From Candidatus Hecatella orcuttiae (GTDB lineage: Archaea > Thermoproteota > Bathyarchaeia > Hecatellales > Hecatellaceae): a stretch of 64,000 nucleotides of DNA. This document shows, piece after piece, positions 19,153 to 39,897 of this stretch (position 1 is the stretch's first letter; each line of letters opens with the position of its first letter). Position numbers and translations under genes: made by a program. Location of the stretch: positions 224,001-288,000 of the forward strand of contig MTLY02000003.1 in the NCBI GenBank assembly GCA_002011035.2. The letters run 5' to 3'. Below the pieces are notes generated by a model, which had not been told where the DNA came from, made no database searches, and saw nothing but the letters and a program-made list of their open reading frames with translations.

Positions 19153-19268
19153 TTTGCTGAGAACATATTTAAACTTCCTACCACCTTAAGCCTTCTTTTT
19201 CAAAAACAGGCCTTAATAAAGGCCCTAGAGCCAAAAGAAACGGTATATTTAAATATCTTCTCAGCAAA
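19153..19268. promoter_or_regulatory. Divergent twin promoter boxes forming a 21-bp inverted repeat
   Basis: TTTAAATAT[G/C]TTCTCAGCAAA at 19153-19173 (minus) and 19248-19268 (plus), 20/21 identical, each starting with a TATA-like TTTAAATA. Confidence 0.7.
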
Positions 19269-19411
19269 ACCCTTTTTGAAGAAGGTCTCAAAGGGGGTGT
19301 TTTTGTGCGTTTCAAGGCGGCAGCGGAGCGGCTTTTCGAAGCCCTAGGCGGCGACGAGTGGGCCGCGGAGCAGGTGCGCATCTGGCTGGCCCTCAGGAAC
19401 GGGCGGAACTA

Positions 19412-19930
19412 GGCCGGGCAGCCCCCGGCTTAGCCGCAGTCCGGCGTGAAGAGGCCGGAGAAGGAATGACCACCCGGAGAAGCCTGACCGGCAGGGGGGC
19501 TCAGGTTCCGGGTGCAACCGTGCCCTTGAGAGGCACAGGCCGGGTGGGGCGACCCCCGGGGCTGAGCTGAAAAGGCTGTGAACCCGGGGGCGGAAGTACA
19601 GGGAACCTTGAAGCCTCCCCGGAGGCCCGAGGCCGGCGGTAGAGCCGACGGCCTGTGAGCGGCTGAGGGGAGGCTGGGTTAGAACCCTAGAGCCGCAGGC
19701 GGTGAGGACCGCCAAGCTCCGAGCCTGCGGTCGCGGGGGCTGCCCCGAAGGGCCCCTGCGGGTAACTCGAGCATGTCAATCCCCAACATGCTTAGCCCCG
19801 CGTCTGAGGCGGTGTCTCGTAGGCCCCAAGGGGGGCTAGCGAGGTCTGTCCCCGGGCAGGCTTGGGCGACCAAGCCAATAGCCCAGCCTCCCAGGCGACT
19901 GGGAGGCGTGTCCACGGCGGGGCGAGGGTT
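19412..19930 (+). ncRNA. Putative large structured RNA (~520 nt), family unrecognised
   Basis: Long-range helices GGGCAGCCCCC/GGGGGCTGCCC and GCCCCGC/GCGGGGC enclose more than 10 hairpins, two with GCGA tetraloops; no credible ORF. Confidence 0.65.
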
Positions 19931-19933
19931 TGC

Positions 19934-20149
19934 ATGGCCAAACCCCAACGTCACCCTGACTACCCGGATGCACAGGCCCTTGTCGGGGTGAAGGCCTTGC
20001 AGGTTGTTCGAGTAGTGGAGGAGCTGCAGCCCGACAGCTTCACGCCAGACTTCACCTGGTGCCGGGTGGAGGTGCAGCTTCCAGACGGCTCCAGGGCGGT
20101 TTGGACGTTGCTGCTGTCGCCGGCCGAGCTCCGAAAATACGGACGTTAG
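19934..20149 (+). CDS. Hypothetical protein, first ORF after the structured RNA
   Basis: MAKPQRHPDYPD...; GC3-rich codon usage. Confidence 0.55.
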   Translation: MAKPQRHPDYPDAQALVGVKALQVVRVVEELQPDSFTPDFTWCRVEVQLPDGSRAVWTLLLSPAELRKYGR

Positions 20150-20190
20150 TCCAAACCCCTCCTTTTTTGGCTCAATTCTCGGGGACAGCC

Positions 20191-20442
20191 ATGGAAGCCT
20201 TCACGGTGCCCAAATTCGACCTGCACATCCACGGAGGCCTGGTCCTCCGGCTCCGCGGCGGAGTGACCTTCCAGCGGCAGGGCGGCGGGTCGGCCGTCCT
20301 CATCCGCAACCACGCCTACACGGCCAGGCTCATCCGCCTGGGCGACTGCCCTTATCCGCTGCTGGTGGACGAAGACGGCGTGGTGGGCGTCGTCCCCAGG
20401 CTGCCGGCTAAGATAAGGCGGTGGCTGGGGGCGTTCCACTAG
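20191..20442 (+). CDS. Hypothetical protein (motif-preceded)
   Basis: TTCTCGGGGACAGCCATG; MEAFTVPKFDLHIHGG... Confidence 0.6.
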   Translation: MEAFTVPKFDLHIHGGLVLRLRGGVTFQRQGGGSAVLIRNHAYTARLIRLGDCPYPLLVDEDGVVGVVPRLPAKIRRWLGAFH

Positions 20443-20796
20443 GCCGACCCCGTGGGCCTCCCTTTTTCTGCCTCGGGGGGACCACCGCATGGAGCGCTGT
20501 CCCAGGTGCGGCTACGCCTTCAACCCCAGGCCCAACTGGATGCTGACCGTCTGCCCGAAGTGCGGCGAAACCCTGGTGAGGGTTAAAGCCGGAGAAGACC
20601 GACTGGTGAAGGCTTTCGACTGAGCCCTTTTTTCGGGGAAGGGGTTAGCGTGGTTTCATGGGTTGAGGTGGACGACCTAGCCCAGGATGTGGCTGAGAAG
20701 GCCGGGGACGACCTGGCTTCGAGGGTGAAGGAGCTGGCGGTGCGGCTGGCCGAAGAGGGCCTGACTGCCGAGTAGGCCCCTTTTCGGGGATTTTCG

Positions 20797-21525
20797 ATGG
20801 CTAAGGCTAAGGGTAAAGTCGTCGAGCAGGTGCTCGTTCAGGCCGCCAAGCCCGGTCAAAGACGGCAGGTGGCCGAGGAGCTGAAGAAGGCGGAGGCGGA
20901 GGGCCGGCGGTTCCACGGCTTCAAAGCCGACCTCAGGTACACCAGCCCCGAGTTCACCGTCACAACGCCCATCCGCTACGAGAAGCTCACCGCCAAGGAC
21001 GTGGAGGCCCGCATGAAGATCGTGCACCGCCACGTCAGCGGCGTCGAAGTCTCCCTCCGGCCGACACCCTACCACTGGGCGTACATGGACGCGGAGGGCC
21101 GGGAGTACCCGGAGGCCGAGGTCCGCCACTACCAGCTGCTCCCCGACGGCCGGGAGGTGGAGGTGCAACCGTTCCCCAGGACCAAGGTCTTGGAGGTCAA
21201 GAAGCTGCTGCCAGCCACCAGCCTCAGCGAGTTCCTCGTCGAAGGCCTCTACGAGGTCTGGTCCGACGCCCCAGGGCAGCTGCTGGAGTTCGCCGAATAC
21301 CTCCAACGCAAGGACGCCATGGCCGTGAGCAAGCTGAGCTTCGGCCGGGGCTTCAAGGAAAGCTACGCCCTCATCTACCCCATCTTCCAGGACGGCCGCT
21401 TCATCCTGGTGATGGCCCTGACCCAGAAGCGCGTCGAATACCGCCACTGGATGCCGGTGGAGGCTCAGGAGGCGAAGCCGAGGGAGGCTGTGCCCGTGGC
21501 CCAGTCGGTCTTGGAGGAAATCTAA
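20797..21525 (+). CDS. Divergent Ku-like (NHEJ end-binding) protein
   Basis: TTPIRYEKL, GREYPEAEVRHYQLLPDG, RTKVLEVKKLLP..LYEVW and AMAVSKLSFGRGFKESYALIYP follow the prokaryotic Ku core order. Confidence 0.6.
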   Translation: MAKAKGKVVEQVLVQAAKPGQRRQVAEELKKAEAEGRRFHGFKADLRYTSPEFTVTTPIRYEKLTAKDVEARMKIVHRHVSGVEVSLRPTPYHWAYMDAEGREYPEAEVRHYQLLPDGREVEVQPFPRTKVLEVKKLLPATSLSEFLVEGLYEVWSDAPGQLLEFAEYLQRKDAMAVSKLSFGRGFKESYALIYPIFQDGRFILVMALTQKRVEYRHWMPVEAQEAKPREAVPVAQSVLEEI

Positions 21526-21549
21526 GCCTCCAACCTTTCGGGGACAGGG

Positions 21550-21741
21550 TTGTCCTTATGTGTGGGCGTGAAGAGGAATCCGACGCTTGCAGTGGCCGGT
21601 GAGGGCGTGGAAAAGATGAGCAGAGACGAGCTGCTGGAGCTGGCGGGCGAATACCTGGAAACGGTCTGCTTTCTCCCGGCGAGGGTTATCAGGCGTGGGA
21701 AGCGGGCTGTCATCGTCTTGGAGCCTGAAAGCTACCCGTAG
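21550..21741 (+). CDS. 63-aa hypothetical protein, paralog of 22715-22906
   Basis: Shared VGVKR.PTL.VAGEGV.KM...ELA.EYLETV.F.PARVI.R...AVIVLEPESYP. Confidence 0.7.
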   Translation: MSLCVGVKRNPTLAVAGEGVEKMSRDELLELAGEYLETVCFLPARVIRRGKRAVIVLEPESYP

Positions 21742-22128
21742 CCGCCCTTTTTCGGGGGGGCCTCATGGGATTCTGCTGTGAGCACCTCAAAGCCCAATCA
21801 GCCATGCTACCGGCTGATGTTCCTCTACTGGCTGTGCGAAGCCTGCTACAAGGCTCTCAAGGAAGGAAGCTTGGACGTGAAAATATACAGGCTGTCCTGA
21901 GCTCCCAGGGGCTTTTCGGGGAGTCTGGACGTGGCTGGGAAACGGAAGCTTAAGGAGTATGTAGTGGACCTCGAAAGCTTCACCGTGGAAGCCCGAGACC
22001 ACGATGAAGCCGTGGAGGCAACGCAGCGAAAACTCAAGCAGATGATGGCGGAGGGAAAGGTTGGCATCGACGCCGTGGTGGAGCTGAGCGACGGATGAGG
22101 CGGACACGCCTATTTTTCGGGGAACGAA

Positions 22129-22659
22129 TTGGAAAAGCTCTTCACCGACCTAGCCTTCGCGCTATCCCCCACCATCATCACCCACCAAGGCGGTTGGGGA
22201 GACACCGTTCCAGAGTGGCTGGTCGCAGAGATAAAGCTACAGAGGCTCGCCGAGAACCTGAGGAGGCTGAAGGGTGAAGCCGTCGAGGAGGCCGGCGACG
22301 CCGAGGCTCTGGCCTACCTGTACACGGCCTTCCTGAGCGTGCCGCCCTCCGAGAAGTGGACGAGAATCTACTCCTACCTCCTCGGTAAGGTTGCCCGCGG
22401 CAGGCTCCGGGTTCCCTCAGAAATCGAGGTCAAGGAGCTCTCAGATTACGAGCAGGAGAAGCTCCGGGAGCTGAAGCGGTGGATTTACAGGAAGCGGGCT
22501 GAAAGGGAAAGGCAGCGGCGCGGAGAGGAAGGCCTCGGAGTGCTTCAGCCCCCAAACCGGGCTTCAGCCAGCCTCAGAGCCCGCAGGGCGTGGGTTAAAA
22601 TCTACCGGAGGCGAGGCCAAGAGGATAAGGCCAAGGCTTTGGAGGAAGCCTTAGCCTAA
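22129..22659 (+). CDS. Hypothetical protein with AWVKI tail
   Basis: Motif-preceded 176-aa ORF; GGWGDTVPEWL, DAEALAYLYTA. Confidence 0.7.
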   Translation: MEKLFTDLAFALSPTIITHQGGWGDTVPEWLVAEIKLQRLAENLRRLKGEAVEEAGDAEALAYLYTAFLSVPPSEKWTRIYSYLLGKVARGRLRVPSEIEVKELSDYEQEKLRELKRWIYRKRAERERQRRGEEGLGVLQPPNRASASLRARRAWVKIYRRRGQEDKAKALEEALA

Positions 22660-22714
22660 ATTTCGGGCAGCGGGCGGAAACCCCGTTTATCCCCGTTCTC
22701 GGGGGCAGACCGAC

Positions 22715-22906
22715 ATGGTTTTCCGCGTCGGCGTCAAGAGGAAGCCTACGCTTCTGGTGGCAGGCGAAGGCGTCGACAAGATGGGCAGCGCCGCCCTCAT
22801 GGAGCTGGCCAGCGAGTACCTGGAAACAGTCCGCTTTGAGCCTGCCAGGGTCATAAAGCGCAGAGGCTGCGCCGTCATCGTCCTCGAGCCGGAAAGCTAC
22901 CCTTAA
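22715..22906 (+). CDS. 63-aa hypothetical protein, paralog of 21550-21741
   Basis: Collinear similarity to 21550-21741. Confidence 0.7.
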   Translation: MVFRVGVKRKPTLLVAGEGVDKMGSAALMELASEYLETVRFEPARVIKRRGCAVIVLEPESYP

Positions 22907-23059
22907 CCGAGGGGGTCTTTTTTCGGGGGAAGAGGGGGCCAGCCTTTGGGAAAATGCGTCGACTGCGGCAGAGAAACCGTGAGCCAGCCTGCCCGTCGTG
23001 CAGCACAACAGTCAACCTGGAAGAGGAGGAATAGTCGCCCTTATTTTCGGGGAGCAACC

Positions 23060-23374
23060 GTGGGCAGGAAGCGTTACGACTTTTTCAGGACGAGGTTCGT
23101 CGTCCAGCCCAAGAATTCGATTTTGTACGGGTCCGCCTCGAAGGTTAAAGCTCACCTCCTTGCACTCAACAGCATCTACGGTATCGGCGTCTCCGTCAAG
23201 GAGGTTCCAGGCGGAAACCTTGAAATCGTTACGAGGACTGGTCTGCCGGAGACGGCTAAAATGGACAGAAACTTCGTCCGCTACGTTCTGCAACACCATG
23301 CATATATTGTGGAGGAGGTCTTCGAAGGGCGGAGGTTTCGAGGCAGGAGGGAAATATGGGAGCCCGCGGAGTAG
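23060..23374 (+). CDS. Hypothetical protein (motif-preceded)
   Basis: TTTTCGGGGAGCAACCGTG start; open to TAG 23374. Confidence 0.55.
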   Translation: MGRKRYDFFRTRFVVQPKNSILYGSASKVKAHLLALNSIYGIGVSVKEVPGGNLEIVTRTGLPETAKMDRNFVRYVLQHHAYIVEEVFEGRRFRGRREIWEPAE

Positions 23375-23403
23375 GCGAGAGCTCCCGTTTTTCGGGGAAG
23401 ACC

Positions 23404-23574
23404 ATGCCTCTGGTAGCCGTGTTTGTGAAGGAGAAGACGACGCCTGGAACTGTCCGCTACCGGGAGGAGGCCGGCGAAAACCCGACGACTCTGCGAACGG
23501 TGTACATCGAAAAATGGGCCGTGCAGAAATACGGCCTCGGAGACCGGATAAAGGTAACCGTGGAGCCGGCGTAG
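23404..23574 (+). CDS. Small beta-rich protein
   Basis: MPLVAVFVKEKTTPGTVRYRE..TVYIEKWA..IKVTVE; motif-preceded. Confidence 0.6.
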   Translation: MPLVAVFVKEKTTPGTVRYREEAGENPTTLRTVYIEKWAVQKYGLGDRIKVTVEPA

Positions 23575-24151
23575 CCCCCCGGTGCTCTTTCGGGGTTCGA
23601 CGTGAGGAGGGCTAGAACCGTCAGGGGGCTCCTCCGACAGCTGAGCCGCTGCCCGGAGTGCAGGGGAAGCCCTGCTGTGTTCTTCGGCAACGGCCTCTCC
23701 ATGTGCCAAGCCCACTGGGAAGCCTACGCGGAGGCCTTCGACTACGAGGACGGAAAATTCAAGCCCAGCGTTTTCGGGGGCGAGGATGGCGGAAAAGCGG
23801 CTGCTCAGGTCCTTCATAGCCGACCTCGAGCGGGTTAAAGACCTGCTCGAAGCCTACAACCTGGGCGAAGCCCGGCTGGCGGACGCCTGGGACTTCATCA
23901 GCCTCAGGCTTGACCAGTACAGGCTCCTGCTCAACCCACCCAAGAAACACACCGCATACCGCCGCAAAATCTGCGGCGGAACCTTCACCACGGCGGACGG
24001 AAGGGAAGGATGCACATGGCCACGCACGGCTACTCCTTGAAGGGGGCTGTGAAAAAGGGATACGCGGAGAAACTGAAGGAGCAAGTTTCCGCCCGGCCTT
24101 TCGGGGTTGATTGGCCGTACCCTAGTGCCCCGGACTACCGAGGTGGTTTAG

Positions 24152-24385
24152 ATGTCTATGGGACCTCCTAAATGTCCTGAATGCGGTGAACCCCTTAACG
24201 GAGTCTACTTTGATACCAGCGAATACTACGTCTTCGACCCGTCTGCCGGAACCTACCTTTCAGACGAAAAATCTGGCGAAGGCTACACAAAATGTCCCAA
24301 ATGCGACGCAGACCTTTTCGACCTATTCCCCAACGGCCCCATAAACTTCAAACCCAAACCCAGCACAAAGGGAGCGACCCGATGA
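24152..24385 (+). CDS. Small zinc-ribbon protein
   Basis: CPECG and CPKCD pairs. Confidence 0.65.
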   Translation: MSMGPPKCPECGEPLNGVYFDTSEYYVFDPSAGTYLSDEKSGEGYTKCPKCDADLFDLFPNGPINFKPKPSTKGATR

Positions 24386-24456
24386 TAACTCTAGGCTGTG
24401 CGACACTCTGGTGCACCATTCCTCTGGAGGTCATCCTTTCGGGGACAGCCGTGAGC

Positions 24457-25453
24457 ATGGAAGTGGCTGAGCTTAAACCCAAACTGAAGGCTCTGCGAAG
24501 TCTCAGGGAAGTCCCGTTTACAGGCGACACGTGGCTTCAGGTGAAAGCCGACGGAGAGCTGGCCTTGGTGAAGTTTGAGGGCGGAGAGGCCGAGGCGGTG
24601 AACCGCTGGGGCACCGTCCACAGGGGGCTGCCCTGCCTCCGAGAGTTCGCCGAGGCCCTCAAGGCCAAGAGGCTTCGAAGCTTGGAGGCCTTGGCCGAGC
24701 TGTACGCGGAGGGCCTCCGCCTGCCGGAGTTCAGAAAGACCCTGACCCGGAAGCCCGAGGCGGTGAAGCTAGGCTTCTTCACCCTCCTGGCGGTCAACGG
24801 CGCCGGGGTCAAGAACGACTGGCCCTGGCAGATGGGGGAGGCTGGAGTCTTGGCTTGCAGCCAGCCGCCTGGCGGGGCCTCTGCCCTACCGGCGGGTGGT
24901 CGGCCTGCAGGAGGCGGAAGCCTTCTGGAAGGAGTGGGTGGAGGGCCGCGGCTACGAGGGCGTCGTAGCCCGGACGCCCCGGGGAGGCTTCAAAGTCAAG
25001 CCGGAGCTCACCGTGGACGCCGCGGTGGTGGGCGTCAAAAAGACCGAGCGGCTGAGGGTGGGAAGCGTGGTGACAAGCCTCCGCCTGGCCTTGATGAGCC
25101 CGGAGGGCGACCTGGTCCATGTGGGCGATGTCTCCAGCGGCATCGACCCGGAGACCGGGCGGAGGCTCCACGCCTTGGTCAAGCACTTCGCGGTGGGCGA
25201 AGACCGGGAAGCCTACCACGTCAGGCCGGTGCTCGTAGCCGAGGTGAGGTGCTTCGACGTATACCCCGGCCTGCGGCAGGTCTGGCGCTGGGACGGCCGC
25301 CGGTACGCAGCCCGGCAGCCCAGAAGCTTCTTCAGCCTCAAGTCTCCGGTGTTGGTCAGGTTCAGGGAGGACAAGCAGCTGAGGCCTGAAGACCTAGCCT
25401 TGGAGCAGATTCCCGAAGCAGGCCCTTTCTCTTTCGGGGAGGGGGAACCGTGA
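24457..25453 (+). pseudogene. ATP-dependent DNA ligase, frameshifted in a G5 run (24834-24838)
   Basis: QVKADG (motif I), NRWG, AELY, then in the other frame GYEGVVAR, FKVKP, VAEVR, PVLVRFREDK; deleting one G joins them (QMGRLESWL). Confidence 0.82.
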
Positions 25454-31922: not shown

Positions 31923-31954
31923 GGCTGCTCACCTGAAAAATTCGGGGATGCGCC

Positions 31955-32369: not shown

Positions 32370-32558
32370 TGTGGGATAAGAGGATATGTGCCTCTTGCCT
32401 CAGAAGACGAGGCTGCGCTTTGAAGAACACGCCCCTAAGGATGGCGTGGGTATGCTTCGAGCAGGACCCTGACCAGCCGCCGCCCGATAAGCGAGCAGGG
32501 CTGCTGGAGGCGGATGTCTAAGGCTCCCGGAGCTGAGGGCGGCTCTTCGGGGATACCC

Positions 32559-34436
32559 ATGGACAGCTCTAAGACAGACCAACCGACCAAGCAGGCTAAA
32601 GGGCGACTCCGAGTCGACGGCCCCTTCCTCAAAGGCCTCATCGCCTGGATGCAGCGGGTGGCCGGAGAGGCCACCATCACCCTCGACGCCGAAGGCCTCC
32701 GGTTCGCCTACATGGACCCCAGCCATGTGGCCATGGCCGCGGGCAGGCTGACGCCCCAGGCCTTCGCCGAATACGCGGTGGCCCAGGCCGGCTGCTTCGC
32801 CGTGGACCTGGCAGACCTGGCGAAGGCGCTCAAAGGCGTCAAGAAAGGCGTGGAGGTCGGCGTCTCCGTGGACGAGAAACATGTGGCGGTAAGCTTCGAC
32901 GGCGAAACCGTCCGCCTGCCGGTGCTGCCGCCCAGCGACGAGGCAGACCCACCCGAGCCCAAGCTGGCCCACGAGGCTCGGCTGAGGCTGATGCGCGGAG
33001 CCCTGCTGGACGCGGTGCGGAAGGCGGGGCAGGTGAGCGACCAGCTGGTCCTGAAGGCCACGCCCAACGCCCTCCTGGTCAGGGCGTTCAGCGAAACAGG
33101 CGACTACGAGAAAACCCTAGACCGCCACGGCGCATACATGCTGGACTTCCACAGCCCCTCCAACCGAACCGTCAAAGCCCTCTACGGAGCCTCGTTCCTC
33201 GAAGACCTCCTCACCTTCCCCGCGGAGCTGGTCACCGTCGAATTCTCCACCGAAAAGCCCGTGGCCCTCACCTTCGAGGACTACGCCTGGACGGTTCGAG
33301 GGTGGCTGGCTCCGAGGATCGGAGGCGAATACGAGCCCCGGGTCACGGTCAGGCTCTTGGAGGGCCACCCGGGAGTCTACGACGAGGACGGCCAGTTCCA
33401 CGGAGCCCAAGGCTTCAAGGCCGGTGAAATCGCCACCCTCCCCCGGTCTGCCGCGGCCAGGCTGCTGGAAGACGGCAGAGCCGCCCTGAAGCTGACCCCG
33501 GACCCGGCTGAGGGCGTGGAGCCCCTGCCCCTGGGGGCGGTGAAGCTGAAAAGGCGGAGCAAGGGCAAAGGGTGGCTGCTCAGCCGCAGCGGAGACACGG
33601 CCAAGGACGACGCCGAGCAGCTGGCAGGGAGGCTGCTGAAAGCCCTGGAGGCGGCGGAGGGGGACTACCCCGGCAGGCTGCTGGCCGCCGAGAAACCCTA
33701 CACCGGGCAGGAGGCCACCCTCTACGTCATGGCGGAGCGCAGCCGGAAAAGCTACGCCCACGCCGGCCGCTACGGGCTGCCGGTGGTGAAGGTTCTGGAA
33801 GTCGCCGAGGAACCCTTCGGCGAGCACCCGTCCTACGGCTACACCGACTGGAAGCCGCTGGAGGCGGAAGGCGAAGAAGCTGAGCAGGCTGCCAAGGCCG
33901 CTGCCGCCGAGCAGGCGGAGGAGGCGGAGGCTGGCGAGGAAGAAGGCGGAGGCTGCGAGTGGAGCCGCAGCGAGGAGGCTGACCGATACAGGGAGGAAAT
34001 GCGCCGTCTGGACGAGGAGCTGAGGAAACTCGGCCTCCTGGAGGAGCTGCGAGGCCTTGAAACCCTCAAAGTCAGAGAGCTGGCCGAGAGGGTGAAAGCC
34101 CAACCCGGCGAAGCCGTCCTCGCCACCCTAGACCGGGCCCTAGCCGTCCACGAGGAGTTCTACCGCAAACTCTACGCAGCCTACGGATGGAAACTCGAAG
34201 ACCTAAAGGAAGGACAGGCCCCCGAGGTCTCCGACATTTTAAAGATGAGGCGATGGCTCACGGGATTCCTGAAGCGGAAAGCCGAAAAACCCGAGCCCAA
34301 GCCCGAAGGCACAAGGCGGGCTAAGAAGGCGTGGGTGAAGATTTGGCTGAAGCGAGGCCGGAGGGACCGAGCCGAGCAGCTGGCCGACGAGCTGGGCATC
34401 AGCCTGGAGGCTGTGGAAAAGGAGCTGGAAGGCTAA
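32559..34436 (+). CDS. PCNA-like sliding clamp fused to a GINS-B-like domain and a helical/acidic tail
   Basis: EATITLDAEGLRFAYMDPSHVAM, FSTEKPVALTF..GWLAPRI (PCNA); VTVRLLE..GVYDEDGQFHG..FKAGEIATLPRSAAARLLEDGRA (GINS B-domain-like). Confidence 0.82.
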   Translation: MDSSKTDQPTKQAKGRLRVDGPFLKGLIAWMQRVAGEATITLDAEGLRFAYMDPSHVAMAAGRLTPQAFAEYAVAQAGCFAVDLADLAKALKGVKKGVEVGVSVDEKHVAVSFDGETVRLPVLPPSDEADPPEPKLAHEARLRLMRGALLDAVRKAGQVSDQLVLKATPNALLVRAFSETGDYEKTLDRHGAYMLDFHSPSNRTVKALYGASFLEDLLTFPAELVTVEFSTEKPVALTFEDYAWTVRGWLAPRIGGEYEPRVTVRLLEGHPGVYDEDGQFHGAQGFKAGEIATLPRSAAARLLEDGRAALKLTPDPAEGVEPLPLGAVKLKRRSKGKGWLLSRSGDTAKDDAEQLAGRLLKALEAAEGDYPGRLLAAEKPYTGQEATLYVMAERSRKSYAHAGRYGLPVVKVLEVAEEPFGEHPSYGYTDWKPLEAEGEEAEQAAKAAAAEQAEEAEAGEEEGGGCEWSRSEEADRYREEMRRLDEELRKLGLLEELRGLETLKVRELAERVKAQPGEAVLATLDRALAVHEEFYRKLYAAYGWKLEDLKEGQAPEVSDILKMRRWLTGFLKRKAEKPEPKPEGTRRAKKAWVKIWLKRGRRDRAEQLADELGISLEAVEKELEG

Positions 34437-34680
34437 CCCCAGCCTCCCCATTTTTCGGGGGACGTTTCGGGGATACACCGTGCAGTATCTCAGGCTCTAT
34501 GCGGTGGTCAAGGACGCTCAGGTGGACGCTGAAGGGCAGGTGTGGCTGTGCCTAGCCCGCGTGCAGAGGGCTGTCGCCGAGCTCAACGTCAAAGCCCTCC
34601 GCGACATCCGAGGCAAACCCATAATTTTGACCGTGGATGTCTGACAGGTTTATATGCGAAAACAGGGGAAGTGTTCATGG

Positions 34681-35268
34681 ATGACAGCCCGAAGGTTCAA
34701 ACAGTCCCCGCTTGGGAGAAGCTTCAGAGACGTGGTCTCCGCCGCCTTGGAGCTCCTGGAGAGAAGCGGGCTGAGCTACGCCTTGACGGGGGGAGCTGCG
34801 CTGCCCTACTTTGGAAGGGCCAGGGCGACGGCGGACGTGGACCTGGTGGTGGAACACGACGAGGAGAAGCTGAGAAGATTCGTCGAGGAGCTGAACAGAG
34901 GCGGCTTCACCGTCCCTTGGGAGTGGGTGGAGCGGTCCTTGGAGGAGAAAACCCACTTCACCGTCCAGGACACGCTCTCCCCCTACCGGCTGGACGTCAA
35001 AGTCCTGCAGCCGGGAGAGGGTTTGGGGCGGACCGTGGAGGCGGTGGTGGACGGCAGGCCGATGCGCCTCACCGCCCCGGAGGAGCTGGTCGCCCTCAAG
35101 CTCCGCCTCGGCAGCGACCTAGACCTGGAGGACGCCCGGAGCATCGTAGCCCGGCAGGGAAGCCGCCTCGACGTGCAGTATCTGCTCAGAAAGGCGGAGG
35201 AGCAGGGAGTCAGGGAAAAGGCCGTTAAGCTTCTCGAAGAGGAGGGAGTTGAAGTTGGAGAGGCGTGA
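34681..35268 (+). CDS. Nucleotidyltransferase-fold protein (putative toxin-antitoxin component)
   Basis: YALTGGAAL..GRARATADVDLVV, PEELVALKL..DLEDA. Confidence 0.8.
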   Translation: MTARRFKQSPLGRSFRDVVSAALELLERSGLSYALTGGAALPYFGRARATADVDLVVEHDEEKLRRFVEELNRGGFTVPWEWVERSLEEKTHFTVQDTLSPYRLDVKVLQPGEGLGRTVEAVVDGRPMRLTAPEELVALKLRLGSDLDLEDARSIVARQGSRLDVQYLLRKAEEQGVREKAVKLLEEEGVEVGEA

Positions 35269-35524
35269 AGAGAGACGGCGGGCCGCCAAGGCCTCCGCGG
35301 AGGCTCTGAAAGGCTACGACCCGCTCCAAGTGGTCAGCGACCTCAGCGACTACGCCCTCAGCCTCGCCGAGGCCGGGATAAGGCAGCAGAACCCTAACAT
35401 GTCCGAAGAGCAGGTCAGGGAGGAGCTCCGCCGCCTGGCCGAGTGGAGCAGCCCCTCAGCCTGGCGGGGAAAGGCAGGGCAAGCCCGCCGCGGGGGCCAG
35501 TTTTCTTTCGGGGACCAGCCGTGA
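35249..35524 (+). CDS. Small partner of the nucleotidyltransferase
   Basis: LAEAGIRQQNPNMSEEQVREEL; overlaps the upstream gene. Confidence 0.6.
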   Translation: MKLERREERRRAAKASAEALKGYDPLQVVSDLSDYALSLAEAGIRQQNPNMSEEQVREELRRLAEWSSPSAWRGKAGQARRGGQFSFGDQP

Positions 35525-35838
35525 AGTTCAGCGTCCGCCTTTTTTTCCACCTCCGCTCCCCGGACCCTTACCTCGACGCGAAAAGGGCAGCTCAGGCCGC
35601 CGCAGCCCGGCATGGAGCCGTCTTCGAAGGCGTGGACGACACCCTCAACGGCCTCTACGCCTCCCTGGAGCCGGGGGCCAAAGAGGTCATGGCCGCCTTC
35701 ACCGTTGAACAGCCCACGGTGGAGGAAGCCCGCGAAGCGGCTGAGAGGCTTTACCGCCGCCTCCAAGGCCGACTGCGCCTGGGGTTCATGGAGCTGCCCA
35801 ACCCGGAGGACAGGGTGGTTGTGGAGCGGAGTAAATGA
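35521..35838 (+). CDS. Hypothetical protein (motif-preceded)
   Basis: TTTCGGGGACCAGCCGTG start. Confidence 0.6.
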   Translation: MKFSVRLFFHLRSPDPYLDAKRAAQAAAARHGAVFEGVDDTLNGLYASLEPGAKEVMAAFTVEQPTVEEAREAAERLYRRLQGRLRLGFMELPNPEDRVVVERSK

Positions 35839-36144
35839 AGTGCGCCTTGTTTTTTCTTCGGTATGGCGTTGTTCGGCGTAGGTGTTGCCACGATAGTTTA
35901 CTTGCTGGGGGCTGGACTGGGCCATGTACTACTCACTGGCACCTCCAGCCAACCTAATAACCCCAATCAGCACAGCCATGTAAAAACCATGGAAACTTTT
36001 GCGTCCCGAGGTGAAACCGCCTCTATCCTTCAGCGAGCCAAAACAGTTTTCAGGGGGCAGTAATCACAGTAAGTGTTGCTACAGTTGAATGTCGGAGTCA
36101 CTAAGTTGCCTTTTCCAGAAGGTTTTTAAAAAGCCACATATACA

Positions 36145-36402
36145 ATGAAAAACCGGAAGGTGGTGGGTGTGAGTGAAGAAAATAATGCAAAAAATTTGGC
36201 CCGTCGATATTTTGAAAACAAATTCGGAACAAGGATAGTAAAATTAACAATCGGCGAAGCTGTCAAGGGAGCCGAATCTGAACCAGATGTATGGTATGTC
36301 AACTTTGAGTTAGAGGTTACGGGGGAAAACCCGGTGGCCGGCGCCGTCCCAGTGAACGTAAGAATGGGCACCATAAAAGAGCCATCAGAAGGATGGTTCT
36401 AG
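36145..36402 (+). CDS. Hypothetical protein of AT-rich insert
   Basis: 85-aa ORF. Confidence 0.55.
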   Translation: MKNRKVVGVSEENNAKNLARRYFENKFGTRIVKLTIGEAVKGAESEPDVWYVNFELEVTGENPVAGAVPVNVRMGTIKEPSEGWF

Positions 36403-36506
36403 CGGTGAAAAAAGCTGGAAAGTGGTAGAATGCAACAGTATAATCTCGCTGCCATATTAAGAAATCGTTAGGAGCGGAGAGAAAAACGAAGATAAAGTCT
36501 CTCTAT

Positions 36507-37520
36507 ATGCCTGATACATGTCTTCAGGGTGACGAATTTCCAGCACATATAATCTGGGATAAGTTAGACAAAGTTGAGATATCCATCAGATACCCAGAAA
36601 CAATAGAGGTCAAGGCGATTTATAATGTTCCAACAGATGGGATTGAAATCTCTGATGAGCGTTCTATTAAAATCACCGATTTCGAAGTAAACGGATATTT
36701 AGGAATCCTCTTCTGTTCTAGAATATTAGTCGACTTCAGAAAGCGTGAACGCGTACAATTCGAAATTTTAGATCTGCGAAACTCTTCTATAGAACGATTC
36801 ACGAGAGAAATTGATCTATTTAGGCCAGCCCTAAAACTTGAAAGCGTCCCCCCTAGACTCAACATAAAATATGATTCTTCTACCCGCTCCTATAAGATTG
36901 GTGACAAGATTCGCATAAGGAATCTAGGTGATGGAACTGCGCTTATTAGTGTTGGAGTAGGTGAGGGGGACTTCCAAAGACATTATCCCCAAGGAATTGA
37001 CGATTTTGCAAAGGCATTTGTGTGCGACTTGGAAATCAAATTAAACGTTATCAGGTCCGAATATCCCGAACACTCTTCGCTAATTGACAAATTCTTGTCT
37101 TTATTGAAACAGCCTATTACTCTTGACGGTAAAACGAAAGCAATAATTCAATCAGTTTTTAATGGTCTCGCAAGGGCGTTCGAGGAAAGCGAAGGCTTTT
37201 ATAACAACTTCGTCTCAGCGGTTGCGATTTCATATCTAAAGAATATCCAATTGATAACTGAGCTGAAAACCTTCATGGAGTATTTAAATTCAATAGGTGA
37301 GGGAAGAATCATTCTCGTAAATTCGGTGGATGTACTGAAAGCCAAAAGAACTTCAGGACGAATGCATCTAGTCATTCAAATTACTGATCTCGCCTACAAT
37401 GACTATCCCCCTATTGAACTCCCTTCTATCCCGGTAACATGCGAAGGTAGTGATGAAGTGCCGATTCACATGCTATTTGATTGGAAAGCGGGTCCCTTAA
37501 GGAGGGAAGAAGATGGTTGA
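36507..37520 (+). CDS. Hypothetical protein of AT-rich insert
   Basis: 337-aa ORF, no recognised motif. Confidence 0.75.
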   Translation: MPDTCLQGDEFPAHIIWDKLDKVEISIRYPETIEVKAIYNVPTDGIEISDERSIKITDFEVNGYLGILFCSRILVDFRKRERVQFEILDLRNSSIERFTREIDLFRPALKLESVPPRLNIKYDSSTRSYKIGDKIRIRNLGDGTALISVGVGEGDFQRHYPQGIDDFAKAFVCDLEIKLNVIRSEYPEHSSLIDKFLSLLKQPITLDGKTKAIIQSVFNGLARAFEESEGFYNNFVSAVAISYLKNIQLITELKTFMEYLNSIGEGRIILVNSVDVLKAKRTSGRMHLVIQITDLAYNDYPPIELPSIPVTCEGSDEVPIHMLFDWKAGPLRREEDG

Positions 37521-38487
37521 AATTGGTGAAATTGGAGCAATTATTGGAACATGTTCTGCTCTAGCGGAAAAAGGCGTTGGGGAAATAATCAAGACTGCGT
37601 CGAAAATATACGAAACAATTAAAGGCTCCTACAAAGTCCTAAACCAAGAGATCGTGGTGCTCTGCCCTGAATCAGTCCAACACTTTTCTATCGCTTTCGA
37701 GGCCACAGGTGGATTCTTGAGTCAAAAGATTAAGTTTCCTTTTGGGAAACCACTTAGGGTGAGGCTTAGACCCTTGAGGTCATTGCAAGACCTATCCGAG
37801 GCAATCTTTCTTACTGAAGAAGGTTTTGAGATTAATACTCGGGGCATGCAAGCGGAGGACACTTTTCTATTAGATGTTGATTATAGGATTACAGACCCAA
37901 AATTCGTAGATGCTCTTGTCCAAAGAAATCACGCAAGAGAGTTACCGAAAGACAGAGAGAGCGAATACTGGATGCATGCTCAATTGAAACATCCTAAAGT
38001 CTTTCAGACAAAGTATGGTCGATTAGATCTCCGCGACGTAGATTTTAGCGTTAACGTTGGGATTAGTGAAGACATAAAAATGTCCATCCCTTCTGCGTTT
38101 AGAAGAGAACTAGAAGCTGGTGTGAAGCTTCTTATGGAACGGGACCCGCATAGGAAGTATATGCTCGGAAGAGAACATGTAAAGGCTATGAGAGCACGAG
38201 GCAAAGGAAAAAGTGTAATCGAACTTCTCGGAGATCTTCAAGATCTTTTCTTTCCAAGAACTTTCCGCAAGTTTGTTGAGGTGAAAAAAGACTTCCGTTA
38301 TTCTGAGTGCCACAGGGGGAGCGATTTCTATGAGACAGTACCTTTTCCAACATGGCCGAAGACTATGAAAGTCATATCTAGAACTGATCTTGGACTTGAA
38401 CGATACGCCGCAGAAGGAATTCTCGTGTATAAAAAGGCAGACTTTCTTGAACAGGTAAGCAAAATACTTGGCGTGAAGCTGAAGTAA
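37513..38487 (+). CDS. Hypothetical protein of AT-rich insert
   Basis: 324-aa ORF overlapping the upstream stop. Confidence 0.75.
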   Translation: MVEIGEIGAIIGTCSALAEKGVGEIIKTASKIYETIKGSYKVLNQEIVVLCPESVQHFSIAFEATGGFLSQKIKFPFGKPLRVRLRPLRSLQDLSEAIFLTEEGFEINTRGMQAEDTFLLDVDYRITDPKFVDALVQRNHARELPKDRESEYWMHAQLKHPKVFQTKYGRLDLRDVDFSVNVGISEDIKMSIPSAFRRELEAGVKLLMERDPHRKYMLGREHVKAMRARGKGKSVIELLGDLQDLFFPRTFRKFVEVKKDFRYSECHRGSDFYETVPFPTWPKTMKVISRTDLGLERYAAEGILVYKKADFLEQVSKILGVKLK

Positions 38488-38830
38488 TCAAAACACCAAT
38501 AGTAGTTATTATGTTTTAACGTTTTTATAATAGTTTTGACTAGCTGAGGGGACTTTAAAGTCGGAGCATAGATAAAGGGATAAAAGAATTAGAGATTACT
38601 TTGGTTCCGCTTTTCCTTCATATTTTTTGCGTAAGTTTCTCATATTCTTCGCTAACCCATCTGCTGTCTTCCTCGAAATCTTTGAGTATGCCTAGTTTTC
38701 GGTGCACTCCAGCCCCATGTCTGAGGTGGTTGGGGGTGCTCCTCGAACCTTGTAGGGGCCTCGGCGGAAAAGAGCCGGCGGCTTCTTAGAGCCACCATAT
38801 TTAAGGGCGCTGATTCTTTCGGGGATTACC

Positions 38831-39595
38831 GTGGAAAGCGCCTTAGGCTTGCTGTCGAAGATTTTTCTAGCGGTGCCCCTGTTGGCTGCGAAGCGCATGT
38901 ACCATGAGGCCCGGGACACCTGGAATCCGTATGTCGGCTGCCTGCACGACTGCCTCTACTGCAAGAAATCCTTCCAACGCCAAGTGGCCAGGGTCGGCCG
39001 CATCTTCGGCTGCGAGGGCTGCATCCGCTACCAGCCCCACTTCCACCCTGAGAGGCTGAGCCGCCGGCTGCCCAGGACAGGCCCCGGGCAGTTTATCTTC
39101 GCCTGCGACTGCGGAGACTGGACGTTCGCCCGCCCCGAGTGGAGGGCCGCCGTCCTCCGCCGCATAGCCGAGCTTCCCGACCGTACTTTTCTCATCCAGT
39201 CCAAGAATCCCGCCTGCTTCCAGAAGGACAGCTTCCCCCCCAACGTCATCCTGGGAACGACCATCGAAACCAACCGGGACGAGCTGGGCAGGGCGATCTC
39301 CAAGGCCCCGCCTCCCTCAGCCCGCTACGCCGCGATGGCCACCCTCCGGTGGCCGAGGAAGATGGTCACCGTGGAGCCCATCATGGACTTCGACCCCGAC
39401 ACCCTCCTGCGGTGGGTGAAGGACATCAGCCCCCTCTGCGTCTACGTGGGCTACGACAGCCGCCTCACCGGGCTGCCGGAGCCGCCCCGGGCAAAGACCG
39501 AAGCCTTCATGGCGGCCGTGGAGGAAGCGGGCATCCCGGTGAGGCGGAAGCTCATCAGAGAAGCCCAACCCAGCCGCCCCGGGTTGCGAGGCTAG
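38831..39595 (+). CDS. DUF5131 / phage Gp37-Gp68-like radical-SAM-related protein
   Basis: TWNPYVGCLHDCLYC, FLIQSKNP, NVILGTTIET, VTVEPI. Confidence 0.8.
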   Translation: MESALGLLSKIFLAVPLLAAKRMYHEARDTWNPYVGCLHDCLYCKKSFQRQVARVGRIFGCEGCIRYQPHFHPERLSRRLPRTGPGQFIFACDCGDWTFARPEWRAAVLRRIAELPDRTFLIQSKNPACFQKDSFPPNVILGTTIETNRDELGRAISKAPPPSARYAAMATLRWPRKMVTVEPIMDFDPDTLLRWVKDISPLCVYVGYDSRLTGLPEPPRAKTEAFMAAVEEAGIPVRRKLIREAQPSRPGLRG

Positions 39596-39897
39596 GGTCG
39601 CTTCTTTTTTCGGGGGAGCGGTTTGGCTAAGCTGTTCTTGGTCACGGAGGACAAGGAGCAGACATGGTTTCTGGTCGAAGCTGACTCTGTGGCCAGCTCT
39701 CTAAGGTGGCTGAAGGGAAGGCTTACCGATGCGTAAAGTCTTTACATCAGTGGCAATCTTAACAGTCTTTTTTTAACATGGGGGTCTTCTTTAGCATCGA
39801 TCACCATAAAAGCTAGGGAAATTGCAATTTCAGTGACTTCTTCTTCGGTTAGCTTTAAATTTTTCTCGTTTCCCAACAAGATAAATCCCCTAGGATT

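Follow-up and report, generated by a model that had tools for sequence, protein, structure and literature searches.

A recurrent box in a GC-rich mobile-element module of an archaeal genome that looks like an element-specific translation signal

Gene content of the island

The window analysed here is a 64-kb stretch of the genome of Candidatus Hecatella orcuttiae (Bathyarchaeia). It contains an array of ca 20 kb with about 40 mostly small genes, and a short sequence, called the box below, recurs between them. The island has a GC content of 63%, compared to 52% for the genome, and this foreign, GC-rich region is a module of a mobile element. Its features are as follows.

18834..19139, minus: GC-rich divergent gene encoding a ~100-aa Cys-rich (CxxC...CxxC) protein, likely start ATG 19139 or 19130
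19153..19173, minus: putative promoter box of the divergent gene, reverse complement GTTTAAATATGTTCTCAGCAAA
19248..19268, plus: putative array promoter, TATA box and downstream box, TTTAAATATCTTCTCAGCAAA
19305..19412, plus: leader ORF of 35 aa, SD-like GGGGGTG upstream
19413..19934, plus: conserved structured non-coding RNA of ~520 nt (fold and covariation)
20178..39615, plus: box array, 38 sites (pyrimidine tract, T(1-7), CGGGG)
20191..20442, plus: first array gene, 83 aa, family-specific, 59% identical to an ORF of the relatives L015/L016
20797..21525, plus: Ku-like protein of 242 aa (lead only)
24451..25453, plus: ATP-dependent DNA ligase in two pieces, with a one-base change of frame in a G-run near 24833-24846
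26237..27360, plus: DUF932 gene in two pieces, with a 62-nt insert between them at ~26852-26913
28850..30900: low-GC insert between two boxes (GC profile)
29297-30253: N6/N4 DNA methylase in this insert (Pfam)
30236-30814, minus: ORF in the same insert
31383..31922, minus: antisense gene without a box
32559..34436, plus: PCNA-like N-terminal domain (PCNA_N, phrog_947) with an unknown C-terminal part of ~370 aa
34654..35268, plus: nucleotidyltransferase-like protein without a box, weak AbiEii and DUF2204 matches
35850..38800: second low-GC insert (GC profile), with ORFans at 36507-37520 and 37513-38487
38831..39595, plus: DUF5131 (phage Gp37/Gp68-like) protein, box upstream

The related elements, called L014 to L017 below, are rare and metagenomic; those that keep the box and its spacing have a GC content of 40-50% and protein identities of 54-57%, and the genes that follow the box are partly different. 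Of the cargo proposed in a first-pass annotation of this DNA, the ligase and DUF932 genes (both through intact homologues) and the PCNA fusion are confirmed, but the Ku-like protein stands as a lead only. The latter has 5 homologues among 5.8 billion proteins, an Atlas feature score of 0.92 to Ku clusters, a weak match to bacterial Ku among PDB profiles (E = 0.21) and a poor AF2 model (pLDDT 43.6); its gene adjoins the ligase gene in L014, with one small ORF between the two in L017. The ligase carries DNA_ligase_A_C in its second frame, with DNA_ligase_A_M found in the L014 and L017 homologues, and the contigs of other sequencing runs are identical at the frame-change site. Both pieces of the DUF932 gene align to the intact 397-aa homologue in L015, which has the DUF932 domain, and the predicted fold of the 62-nt insert resembles a bulge-helix-bulge intron. 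Over residues 18-276, the PCNA fusion shares 26-37% identity with PCNAs of the host type from 39 of 41 genomes, with one additional weak match confined to residues 152-257; the fused form was not seen in the 41 genomes compared.

The 83-aa protein has just 4 matches among 1.84 billion representative proteins and belongs to no Pfam family. Neither does the Cys-rich protein, which we infer to be a candidate regulator. No Pfam or PADLOC family was found for the antisense gene, nor any PADLOC match for the first low-GC insert.

At the head of the array, the minus-strand box, which we take to be a promoter from the archaeal TATA consensus, matches the plus-strand one at 20 of 21 positions, and the array promoter is nearly identical in L016 (ATATATTTAAATATCTTTTCAGCAAA). 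Pure A/T 8-mers are few in the GC-rich stretches scanned: three lie in 19100-19300, and only 3 each in 20200-28820 and 30900-35850. This internal scarcity, when the TATA boxes at the head are strong and conserved, argues for a single operon. The leader ORF has a 44-aa counterpart in L016 at 54-57% identity, with differences of the synonymous type and GGAGGTG upstream in the latter.

The large structured RNA proposed earlier for the head of the array is well borne out. The predicted fold of 19412-19934 has a minimum free energy of -296.8 kcal/mol (z = -4.6), and in the comparison with L016, the sole relative covering this region, both partners have changed in 25 of 118 consensus pairs, with no pair broken, compared to 0-3 in slid controls. 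Gaps in this alignment are mostly not multiples of three. The RNA is single-copy in the genome, and no Rfam family was found for either the island or the L016 copy.

The box and its distribution

The core of the box is TTTCGGGG(A), preceded by a pyrimidine tract. In the whole window TTCGGGG has 40 matches, while shuffles of the window give 15.9 on average and 26 at most. Thirty-four are plus-strand copies in the island, spanning 20632 to 39615; the others are one plus copy at 45832 and five minus copies (8471, 14673, 16082, 17190 and 19743). Between 20000 and 39740 the counts are thus 34 plus and 0 minus, compared to Markov-1 expectations of 2.5 and 3.4 (highest count in 500 simulations, 10), and TTTCGGGG occurs 31 times, with 0.64 expected. 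Four one-base YYCGGGG variants have the identical layout (CTCGGGG at 20178, 20472 and 22698; TCCGGGG at 28509), which brings the array to 38 sites, all on the sense strand, close to the ca 37 copies first reported:

Sites 1-13, plus: 20178, 20472, 20632, 20783, 21537, 21751, 21915, 22116, 22698, 22922, 23046, 23391, 23589
Sites 14-26, plus: 23773, 24100, 24438, 25433, 25582, 25711, 26224, 27375, 27627, 27784, 28046, 28309, 28509
Sites 27-38, plus: 28825, 30906, 30968, 31780, 31941, 32355, 32546, 34454, 34466, 35507, 38818, 39609

The tandem or empty copies described earlier are real (34454/34466, 30906/30968 and 22662, which reads TTCGGGC, with 22698), and 7 of the 34 exact boxes have no ORF, or just a mini-ORF, downstream (24100, 25582, 27784, 28825, 30906, 31780 and 34454).

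Across the whole genome, TTCGGGG numbers 173 copies on the plus strand and 157 on the minus strand, and the only dense 10-kb bins are those of the island. The stricter pattern TTTCGGGGR-N5-6-RTG matches 13 times in the island and twice in the remaining 1.73 Mb. The array is absent from all 400 other genomes of the class that were searched, with at most 5 copies on one strand.

The relatives bear out the conservation of the box. It is exact ahead of 3 of 3 genes in L014 and 5 of 6 in L015 (the sixth has GTCGGGG), at a spacing of 6-9 nt with spacers that are themselves not conserved; taking L015 and L016 as one, only two independent relatives have the exact box. The more distant L017 has TTTTCGGAGGG at this position, which includes a canonical GGAGG. 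Gene content between conserved genes varies among the relatives with a box at every junction, and the leader RNA is retained in L016. In L015, for example, the 83-aa and Ku-like genes flank a homologue of island gene 23404-23574, a place taken in the island by two other small genes, and DUF932 directly follows Ku, compared to 13 genes further on in the island.

Position relative to start codons and host signals

A start codon 4-11 nt 3' of TTCGGGG, opening an ORF of at least 40 aa, is found for 24 of the 34 island copies compared to 33 of 296 elsewhere, in line with the reported position just before ORF starts. In a curated set of 42 plus-strand genes, 31 have a box at most 34 nt upstream; it ends 6 nt before the start in 11 of these and 7 nt before it in 10. 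Where this spacing is 10-11 nt, a second G-run lies closer to the start (e.g. 20632, 25433). The distance from the upstream stop to the box, in contrast, varies from -66 to more than 500 nt. The fixed start spacing, the variable stop spacing, the G-run at the ribosome-binding position and the L017 GGAGG variant together speak for a signal of translation start rather than a site of DNA recombination.

Plus-strand genes without a box have a canonical GGAGG or GAGGTG (24152, 27817, 32145, 35249, 37513), which suggests that the box substitutes for the Shine-Dalgarno sequence (SD). The box-less antisense gene likewise has, as noted previously, a canonical SD, AGGTGAG, 5 nt before its GTG.

As had been argued from the window, the box is not the SD of the host but a common signal specific to the island. 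An unusual 16S anti-SD was also considered, and the tail was found to be canonical, both rRNA copies in the assembly reading CCTCCT-ACGAAACC. The preferred SD of host genes is AGGTG/GGAGG. Upstream of 1220 long host ORFs, AGGGG and GGGGA are enriched 3.1- and 2.2-fold, which means that the host tolerates G-runs as SD, but TTCGG (1.0-fold) and TCGGG (1.26-fold) are not enriched. The predicted duplex with the mature 16S tail is on average -8.2 kcal/mol for 30 island starts, -6.9 kcal/mol for the 1220 host starts and -5.5 kcal/mol for random sequence; GGGG(A) alone gives about -5.7 kcal/mol.

Proposed mechanism and alternatives

We read the box, with moderate confidence, as a start-associated signal for translation that acts at the level of RNA within a single long operon, and the mechanism proposed here is deduced from the sequence. 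Most likely, transcription would start from the conserved TATA promoter at ~19248 and yield one long plus-strand transcript carrying the 35-aa leader ORF, the ~520-nt structured RNA and then about 40 genes, with the box (pyrimidine tract, T-run, CGGGG) at the ribosome-binding position of nearly every cistron. The G-run would then most likely act as a wobble SD, GGGG pairing with CCUC(C) in the canonical tail of the 16S rRNA. Neither the invariant TTTC nor the pyrimidine tract can pair with the mature tail, and both would probably be read by a putative second factor, which could be a protein of the element, an RNA-binding protein of the host or the leader RNA. With such a factor, the element would gain a private, co-regulated translation-start signal. 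As the only sequence common to the gene junctions, the boxes would also favour cassette-like gene shuffling as a by-product.

It is important to point out that the box is most strongly conserved at TTTC, that is, at the positions that the SD model leaves unexplained, and these would fit a DNA-binding or RNA-cleaving reader equally well. One alternative, which we consider unlikely, is a stoperator-like operator array on the DNA: an element repressor, for instance the Cys-rich protein of the divergent gene or any of the numerous Zn-ribbon proteins, would bind the asymmetric box at each junction, block elongating RNA polymerase and keep the integrated element silent. This would account for the TTTC that rRNA pairing does not explain and for a host-rare box. 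Stoperators, as published in PMC9283540, with a contrast in PMC3203893, are short, asymmetric, multi-copy sites in one orientation relative to transcription and in short intergenic spaces, and the island boxes have this layout. However, an operator needs no fixed 6-7 nt spacing to the start, seen here in 21 of 31 genes; the promoter region 19153-19300, where a true operator would be expected, has no exact box or one-base variant; box-less genes have a canonical SD, as though the two were alternatives; GGGG is replaced by GGAGG in L017; and the domain searches of island proteins recognised no repressor family. Somewhat more doubtful is cleavage of the polycistronic RNA by an endoribonuclease at or beside each box, giving short-leader monocistronic mRNAs or inactivating the message by cutting. 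T4 RegB inactivates mRNA in the latter way, cutting at GGAG. A single box per cistron just before the start, the lack of internal promoters in a long operon and empty boxes that could flank non-coding pieces (e.g. 25582, 24100) would suit such a scheme, and the upstream C-rich tract pairs with the G-run somewhat more than in random island sequence (0.79 vs 0.67, p = 0.003). Yet G-run pairing is nearly the same with the upstream part shuffled (0.77 vs 0.74), with no conserved hairpin, and the scans of island proteins recognised no nuclease.

The suggestion in the first-pass annotation that the box may instead be a cassette recombination site appears improbable to us. A crossover point, integron-like or by micro-homology, with start proximity being secondary, would agree with the reordering of shared genes among other neighbours in the relatives with a box kept per junction, with scar-like tandem or empty boxes (e.g. 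34454/34466) and with the position of both low-GC inserts between boxes. But scans of 24 ORFs from 15.5 to 42.5 kb yielded no recombinase or integrase, the box is 9-12 nt long without an inverted repeat, recombination requires neither the strict start spacing nor a G-run at the SD position, and contigs of four other sequencing runs show neither gain nor loss of a cassette. No sign of leader-body logic was seen; the sole anti-motif in the leader is not conserved. We have also considered, as slightly less probable still, that the T-runs are archaeal oligo-T terminators and that the leader RNA gives put-like read-through of its own polymerase, such that the array is expressed solely by transcription from the element's own promoter. 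This ties the conserved head RNA to a T-run at each junction, and the T-runs of L014 and L015 are 4-8 nt. In the island, however, they measure just 3 nt at 16 of 38 boxes and reach 5 nt or more at 11 of 38, too short for oligo-T termination in its usual description, and CGGGG and the start spacing are left without an account. Finally, that the box is chance or an ordinary SD of the host or a donor lineage, possibly with UUUCG pairing with CGAAA after CCUCCU, is very improbable and already largely refuted. Both rRNA copies do read CCTCCT-ACGAAACC, and adding the 16S trailer strengthens the consensus-box duplex from -5.7 to -8.4 kcal/mol, but the trailer is not conserved, as CGAAA follows 16S at only 3 of 10 rRNA loci from this genome and related ones. 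The low frequency before non-island ORFs, the lack of enrichment before host genes, the lack of excess in the 400 class genomes and the retention of the box in elements that have a GC content of 40-50% and presumably belong to other hosts also speak against it.

The start-associated translation signal, our preferred reading, looks like a so far undescribed one in archaea. The earlier statement that the box matches no described system appears to hold for archaea but has to be amended for phages: Start-Associated Sequences, whose function is unproven, are reported in Cluster K mycobacteriophages (PMC3203893), and the island box resembles an archaeal analogue of these bacteriophage sequences.

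The box and its position before start codons

The window contains 40 copies of TTCGGGG, while dinucleotide shuffles of the whole window give a mean of 15.9 and a maximum of 26. Thirty-four of them lie on the plus strand at 20632–39615, and elsewhere there are only one plus-strand and five minus-strand copies. In 20000–39740, the GC-rich plus-strand gene array called the island below, the counts are thus 34 and 0 on the two strands, to be compared with first-order Markov expectations of 2.5 and 3.4, and the highest count over 500 simulated sequences of this region is 10. The 8-mer TTTCGGGG is found 31 times in the island, with 0.64 expected. Four one-base variants with the same layout (20178, 20472, 22698 and 28509) bring the total to 38 sites, all on the plus strand, with none on the minus strand in 20.0–39.7 kb. 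These results confirm the observation of the first-pass annotation, which had put the number of copies at about 37 and described them as confined to the plus strand in this region: the array is real and its enrichment is highly non-random.

When the sites are aligned, T-T-T-C-G-G-G-G is near-invariant (the T at positions −1, 0 and +1 and the C at position +2 occur in 34–38 of the 38 sites) and is preceded by C/T-rich positions, while the base after GGGG is A in 24 sites and G in 10. The box is 9–12 nt long and has no inverted repeat. Over the 1.75-Mb assembly, the only motif-dense 10-kb bins are the two that span the island. The strict pattern TTTCGGGGR-N5-6-RTG has 13 matches in the island and 2 in the remaining genome, and none of 400 other genomes of the class exceeds 5 matches on one strand.

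The box is tied to start codons and not to stops. Of the 34 exact copies in the island, 24 have an ATG, GTG or TTG 4–11 nt downstream that opens an ORF of at least 40 aa; outside the island, this holds for 33 of 296 copies in the same genome. Among the 42 curated plus-strand genes, 31, i.e. about three quarters, have a box at most 34 nt upstream. Measured from the end of the box, the start is 6 nt away in 11 genes and 7 nt away in 10 genes (21 of the 31 together), and the whole range is 5–11 nt, plus one case at 26 nt. The distance to the previous stop, on the other hand, runs from −66, where the box is within the upstream gene, to several hundred nucleotides. Where the box is 10–11 nt from the start, an extra G-run is present closer to it.

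We now turn to the relation between the box and the ribosome-binding sites of the host. Both 16S copies of the assembly end in the canonical GGATCACCTCCT, and the same end is found in eight rRNA loci from seven relatives. The host genes, represented by 1220 long ORFs, use AGGTG, AGGAG and GGAGG; in their upstream regions AGGTG is enriched 3.7-fold, AGGAG 3.2-fold, AGGGG 3.1-fold and GGTGA 2.7-fold, while TTCGG (1.0-fold) and TCGGG (1.26-fold) show no enrichment. The GGGG of the box is predicted to pair with the 16S tail through wobble at −5.7 kcal/mol, and the predicted duplex energies with the tail average −8.2 kcal/mol for the island, −6.9 for host genes and −5.5 for random sequence. The conserved TTTC positions have no pairing partner in the mature tail GGAUCACCUCCU. 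This profile, in which AGGGG is enriched and TTCGG is not, indicates that the G-run can serve as a wobble Shine-Dalgarno (SD) sequence while TTTC is foreign to the host. We have also considered pairing of UUUCG with a complementary stretch in the 16S trailer, but CGAAA occurs in just 3 of 10 rRNA loci, those of relatives included.

The first-pass annotation had argued, from the genes that lack it, that the box is not just the host SD, and this argument stands. The box-less plus-strand genes at 24152, 27817, 32145, 35249 and 37513 carry a canonical GGAGG or GAGGTG instead, and the antisense gene at 31383–31922 has AGGTGAG upstream and no box. Together with the canonical 16S tail, the absence of TTCGG enrichment in the host and the small fraction of outside copies before ORFs, this means that the box is not merely a host SD: it is unused by host genes and fits that class in its G-run part only.

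It can be added that the assembly has two differing 16S sequences, one at C2:464353–466521 and a partial one at C3:4–640 (C2 and C3 being contigs of this assembly). The former has an insert of ca 690 nt and a 3′ region like that of two genomes of another family (G015 and G022), while the latter resembles same-family relatives. They could be two operons, or one could be on a foreign contig; the reported contamination is 4.25%.

Related elements

The 242-aa island protein encoded at 20797–21525 has five homologues in 5.8 billion proteins, and a scan of metagenome contigs with the alignment of these homologues gave five short contigs, L014–L018. In L014 (40% GC), TTTTCGGGG is found 7 nt upstream of all three genes. 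L015 and L016 (49–50% GC) are near-identical over their overlap and count as one; here, the box is 6–9 nt before five of six genes and the sixth has the variant GTCGGGG. L017 is more distant (44% identity); at the equivalent positions it has TTTTATGGGAAGG as well as TTTTCGGAGGG, the latter with a canonical GGAGG in it. L018 has no box, and its gene is fragmented.

The protein identity between the island and L014, L015 and L016 is only 54–57%, the box-to-start spacers are not conserved, and some of the box-preceded downstream genes in the relatives have no island homologue. That the box is nevertheless kept argues that selection acts on the box itself. The conservation in related islands that the first-pass annotation had proposed as a check is seen, and the comparison makes a strong but thin case for keeping of the box within a rare element family, the exact box being present in only two independent relatives.

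Other searches for relatives were also made. The PCNA fusion, a 312-aa ORF, the query alignment A1 and a leader hairpin pattern have no match in viral_contigs, A1 has none in genome_contigs, and neither the phage nor the plasmid collection contains one; the Ku-like query has no relative in the phage collection. The first array protein (83 aa) has only 4 matches in 1.84 billion representative proteins. The hairpin pattern has 4 matches in genome_contigs, about the chance expectation for 19 bases, and they were dismissed as relatives since the similarity is confined to ca 28 nt around the pattern. A double-box pattern is found at 81 loci in viral_contigs. Five of the six inspected have tandem or dispersed repeats and the sixth (L080) is unrelated; the 15 top-ranked loci have at most 2 copies each upstream of an ORF. 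Two viral contigs have tandem 15–21-nt repeats that contain TTTTCGGGG (L028 at ca 750–920 and L038 at ca 80–240). These are not start-associated, and the contigs have no homology to the island.

Head of the array, cargo and flanks

The array is headed by the following features.

19153–19173, minus strand: mirrored promoter box, identical to the plus-strand box at 20 of 21 positions, before a divergent Cys-rich gene
19248–19268, plus strand: array promoter box TTTAAATATCTTCTCAGCAAA, near-identical in L016
19305–19412, plus strand: leader ORF of 35 aa, downstream of the plus-strand promoter box, with an SD of canonical type and protein-level conservation in L016
19413–19934, plus strand: leader RNA of ca 520 nt

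The two 21-nt promoter boxes contain TATA elements, are divergent and lie ca 75 nt apart, an arrangement suggesting that the element is headed by bidirectional promoters under common regulation. Pure A/T 8-mers are nearly absent downstream: the GC-rich blocks have 3 over 8.6 kb and 3 over 5 kb, and the economical reading of this is one long transcript that begins at the head promoter.

The leader RNA region has no conserved reading frame, is unique in the genome and folds with z = −4.6. No Rfam 15 family matches the window at the gathering score; at E ≤ 1, the leader RNA of the island has only chance-level matches and its L016 copy none. Between island and L016, 25 of 118 consensus pairs are changed on both sides and none is broken, compared with 0–3 two-sided changes when the partners are slid by 1–3 columns and 12.7 ± 2.6 in shuffles, the compensatory counts being inflated because it is from this pair of sequences that the consensus structure comes. 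The large structured RNA that had been proposed at the head of the array is thus supported, and it is a previously unclassified one, coupled to the box array. Two conserved hairpin loops in the island–L016 alignment, at ca 19779–19785 and 19851–19854, contain UCCC(C) and could pair with GGGG(A) of the box over 4–5 nt, which we regard as a lead only. There is no sense copy of the box in 19270–20170. An antisense CCCCGAA at 19743 was discarded as an anti-motif: it is within a hairpin and reads CCTGAAG in L016.

The main features of the cargo are listed here.

20797–21525, plus strand: Ku-like protein, 242 aa (Atlas feature score 0.92, 179 shared features)
24451–25453, plus strand: ATP-dependent DNA ligase, with the domain found in the second frame of the island gene and in the L014 and L017 homologues
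26237–27360, plus strand: DUF932 protein, whose intact 397-aa homologue in L015 has DUF932
ca 28.85–30.9 kb: low-GC insert between boxes, with an N6/N4 methylase
35.85–38.8 kb: second low-GC insert between boxes
PCNA-like fusion: PCNA domain and a 370-aa C-terminal part without known family
Other cargo: a DUF5131 protein, a nucleotidyltransferase with weak AbiEii matches, and many Zn-ribbon mini-proteins

The first-pass annotation had likened the cargo to establishment or host-takeover genes; to regard it as the establishment module of a mobile element is reasonable but not proven. The ligase, the DUF932 protein and the PCNA fusion are confirmed. The Ku-like assignment is a lead: the PDB profile match to bacterial Ku has E = 0.21, and the fold model (pLDDT 43.6) is too poor to use. 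The C-terminal part of the PCNA fusion has no usable Atlas match, 8 of 10 island proteins have no PHROGs family, and the island proteins scanned include no recognisable integrase, capsid or replication initiator. A paralogous pair of 63-aa genes (21550–21741 and 22715–22906; …VGVKR.PTL.VAGEGV.KM…VIVLEPESYP), each with its own box, points to cassette duplication as judged from the sequences.

Two of the genes are broken. In the ligase gene, one extra base in a G-rich run at ca 24833–24846 changes the frame (WQMGE | LESWL, compared with L014). The contigs of the other runs are identical here, so that the frameshift is real or else results from a homopolymer error common to all of them. Of 9 sequencing runs considered, eight DNA runs contain the stretch and no RNA run does. 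Over 19800–39799, contigs from four DNA runs have the same sequence: neither broken gene shows an indel, and no cassette has been gained or lost. The two joints noted in this comparison come from contigs of low likeness. In the DUF932 gene, a 62-nt insert at 26852–26913 is missing from the L015 homologue, and its removal restores FTFR-NACANMVLM, compared with FTFR-FGCGNLVIM in L015; symmetric cuts would do so. The archaeal bulge-helix-bulge motif has two 3-nt bulges on opposite strands with a 4-bp helix between them. The predicted fold of the insert has a long helix, a 3-nt ACA bulge, a helix of 4–5 bp (UUCCG/CGGAA) and AAA opposite, with a weak outer helix, and this makes it a candidate bulge-helix-bulge intron in a protein gene of a mobile element. 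Known introns of this kind in pre-mRNA include those in cbf5 genes of Crenarchaeota (PMC2738675).

To the left of the island there is a type III CRISPR-Cas locus at 9124–16720, with the following parts, and the assembly has a second array.

9124–11067: Cas10
12337–13533: Cmr3-like protein
ca 13818–15324: CRISPR array, 21 repeats of 37 nt
15530–16720: Csm6
C3:699569–703989: second CRISPR array

None of the 80 spacers of the two arrays aligns with the island or L014–L018 over more than 19 nt. The right end of the island is directly adjoined by minus-strand genes at 39898–46770 for a Rad50/SMC-like protein, an Mre11-like phosphoesterase, a HerA helicase and a 422-aa ORF without Pfam match. These are followed by a low-GC block at 47089–53492, probably a defence locus, which has an SNF2 helicase with an internal DnaJ domain (1091 aa) and after it two ORFs that jointly match a type IIG restriction-methyltransferase, split or frameshifted. 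At 4939–5025, ARAGORN reports an 87-nt tRNA-like gene without a called anticodon, which may be an intron-containing or atypical tRNA.

Mechanism and comparison with known systems

The reading that we favour, to which we give about an even chance, is that the box is an RNA-level, start-associated translation signal. It is based on the G-run at SD distance, which GGAGG replaces in the box-less genes and in L017, on the duplication of the G-run nearer the start when the box is 10–11 nt away, and on 16S-tail duplex energies that at least match those of host genes. An SD does not explain TTTC and the pyrimidine tract, although they vary no more than the G-run does, and from this we infer a second reader. 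One long polycistronic transcript would start at the head promoter, the G-run would act as a wobble SD with CCUCC of the 16S tail, and TTTC with the pyrimidine tract would be read by a second factor, protein or RNA. An SD-masking hairpin was also considered, but the pairing of the G-run is 0.77, compared with 0.74 in composition-matched shuffles; its pairing with the upstream tracts is in modest excess (0.79 vs 0.67 for random island sequence).

A bolder proposal, which we consider rather unlikely, is that the leader RNA and the ca 38 identical boxes, each a U-run with CGGGG, work together as a system dedicated to gene expression in a family of archaeal mobile elements not seen before. The RNA, through its C-rich loops or as an RNP, would license or collectively shut off translation of the 20-kb message, giving a private ribosome-binding code uncoupled from host SD rules, and the boxes would double as junctions for cassette exchange.

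Other functions of the box are less probable. It could be a DNA operator array like the stoperators of Cluster A mycobacteriophages, which are likewise many short asymmetric sites in short intergenic spaces, oriented with transcription (PMC9283540). Stoperators are, however, repressor-binding sites that include the operator of the early promoter, whereas here the spacing to the start is fixed, the promoter region 19153–19300 has no exact or one-base-variant box, and no repressor family was recognised among the scanned ORFs. The boxes might also be RNA cleavage sites. A terminator role of the T-runs was dismissed, as they are mostly 3 nt and too short for this at most island sites. Finally, the box could be a recombination site: the island, L014 and L015 differ in gene order while each junction has a box, which is a cassette-like mosaicism. 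But Pfam scans of 24 ORFs at 15.5–42.5 kb gave no integrase or recombinase, and with a site of 9–12 nt the mosaicism is better read as a result of repeated micro-homology than as the function of the box. The first-pass annotation had left the shared signal between RNA and DNA level. Its interpretation is partly supported, with a translation-start signal favoured over a cassette recombination site, also because the box tracks starts.

Integron cassette arrays are similar in having co-oriented, mostly promoterless small genes, a repeated site and a content that varies between relatives. The box is, however, at a fixed distance before starts and not at the cassette 3′ end, and lacks the imperfect inverted repeat of attC, which is tens of bases long; no attI was found, the same Pfam scans gave no IntI tyrosine recombinase, and the repeat search gave no inverted repeat pairs of at least 24 nt. 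In these defining features the island does not fit an integron. The promoter-stem-loop cassettes of T4 are a further known arrangement for comparison.

Compared with a canonical SD, the box is likewise a G-rich element 5–9 nt before the start that pairs with CCUCC and is interchangeable with GGAGG in the island. It differs in that TTTC and the pyrimidine tract are outside the pairing, in a far higher information content and in being missing from host genes. Transcription-regulating sequences of nidoviruses and gene-start/gene-end signals of mononegaviruses are polymerase signals of RNA viruses, with a sense copy in the leader. They resemble the box as one short conserved signal per junction in a co-oriented array behind a leader, but the island is a DNA genome, and a leader-body signal is rejected as 19270–20170 has no conserved copy, the sole antisense copy (19743) being lost in L016. 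For the leader RNA, RNAIII and RsaE of S. aureus can be compared, which mask G-rich ribosome-binding sites with C-rich loops. The conserved UCCC(C) loops could act in this way, but the leader RNA is far larger and is in cis with its putative targets.

The closest described system is that of the Start-Associated Sequences (SAS) of Cluster K mycobacteriophages. These are 13-bp asymmetric boxes in 11–19 copies, 3–7 bp before starts, in a single orientation in the non-structural half of the genome; they have AGGAG together with conserved positions that lack a 16S partner, are essentially absent from the host and are conserved before genes of differing families (PMC3203893). Their role still awaits experimental verification according to a 2025 survey (PMC12699233). 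On these descriptions, all the functional characteristics of SAS are found in the island box: it is short and asymmetric, has a dozen or more copies in one orientation a few bases before starts, in the non-structural part of the genome and at the position of a ribosome-binding site, combines an SD-like core with positions unpaired with 16S, is rare in the host, and is kept across related elements before genes of differing families. The function of both is putative. The differences are the sequence (TTTCGGGG after a pyrimidine tract, compared with GGGATAGGAGCCC), the host (an archaeon instead of a mycobacterium), the core (a wobble G-run instead of AGGAG) and the higher density, some three quarters of the genes being preceded by one of the 38 sites. 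The 17-bp inverted-repeat extension of SAS (ESAS) is not seen for the island box, and the island array, unlike SAS as described there, has a conserved leader ORF and a structured RNA of ca 520 nt at its head. Since the consensus differs and neither the sequence nor the proteins are homologous to those of Cluster K phages, the box appears to work in the manner of SAS without belonging to that family.

Searches of main texts by motif string, SAS and stoperator found no archaeal start-associated box, the full-text motif-string search giving primers and unrelated sequences only. Start-associated boxes are known from one bacteriophage group, with a function unsettled 15 years after their description. 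The archaeal case is independent, denser and of different sequence, yet follows the same logic, and by this analogy it suggests that marking and co-regulating early genes through start boxes may be a general strategy of mobile elements. It also adds a conserved structured RNA at the operon head as a handle, has relatives of very different GC content that isolate the selected nucleotides, bears on archaeal ribosome initiation at internal cistrons, and offers the candidate intron. With the box, a type of signal that is known but unexplained gains an archaeal form, here together with an unclassified leader RNA.
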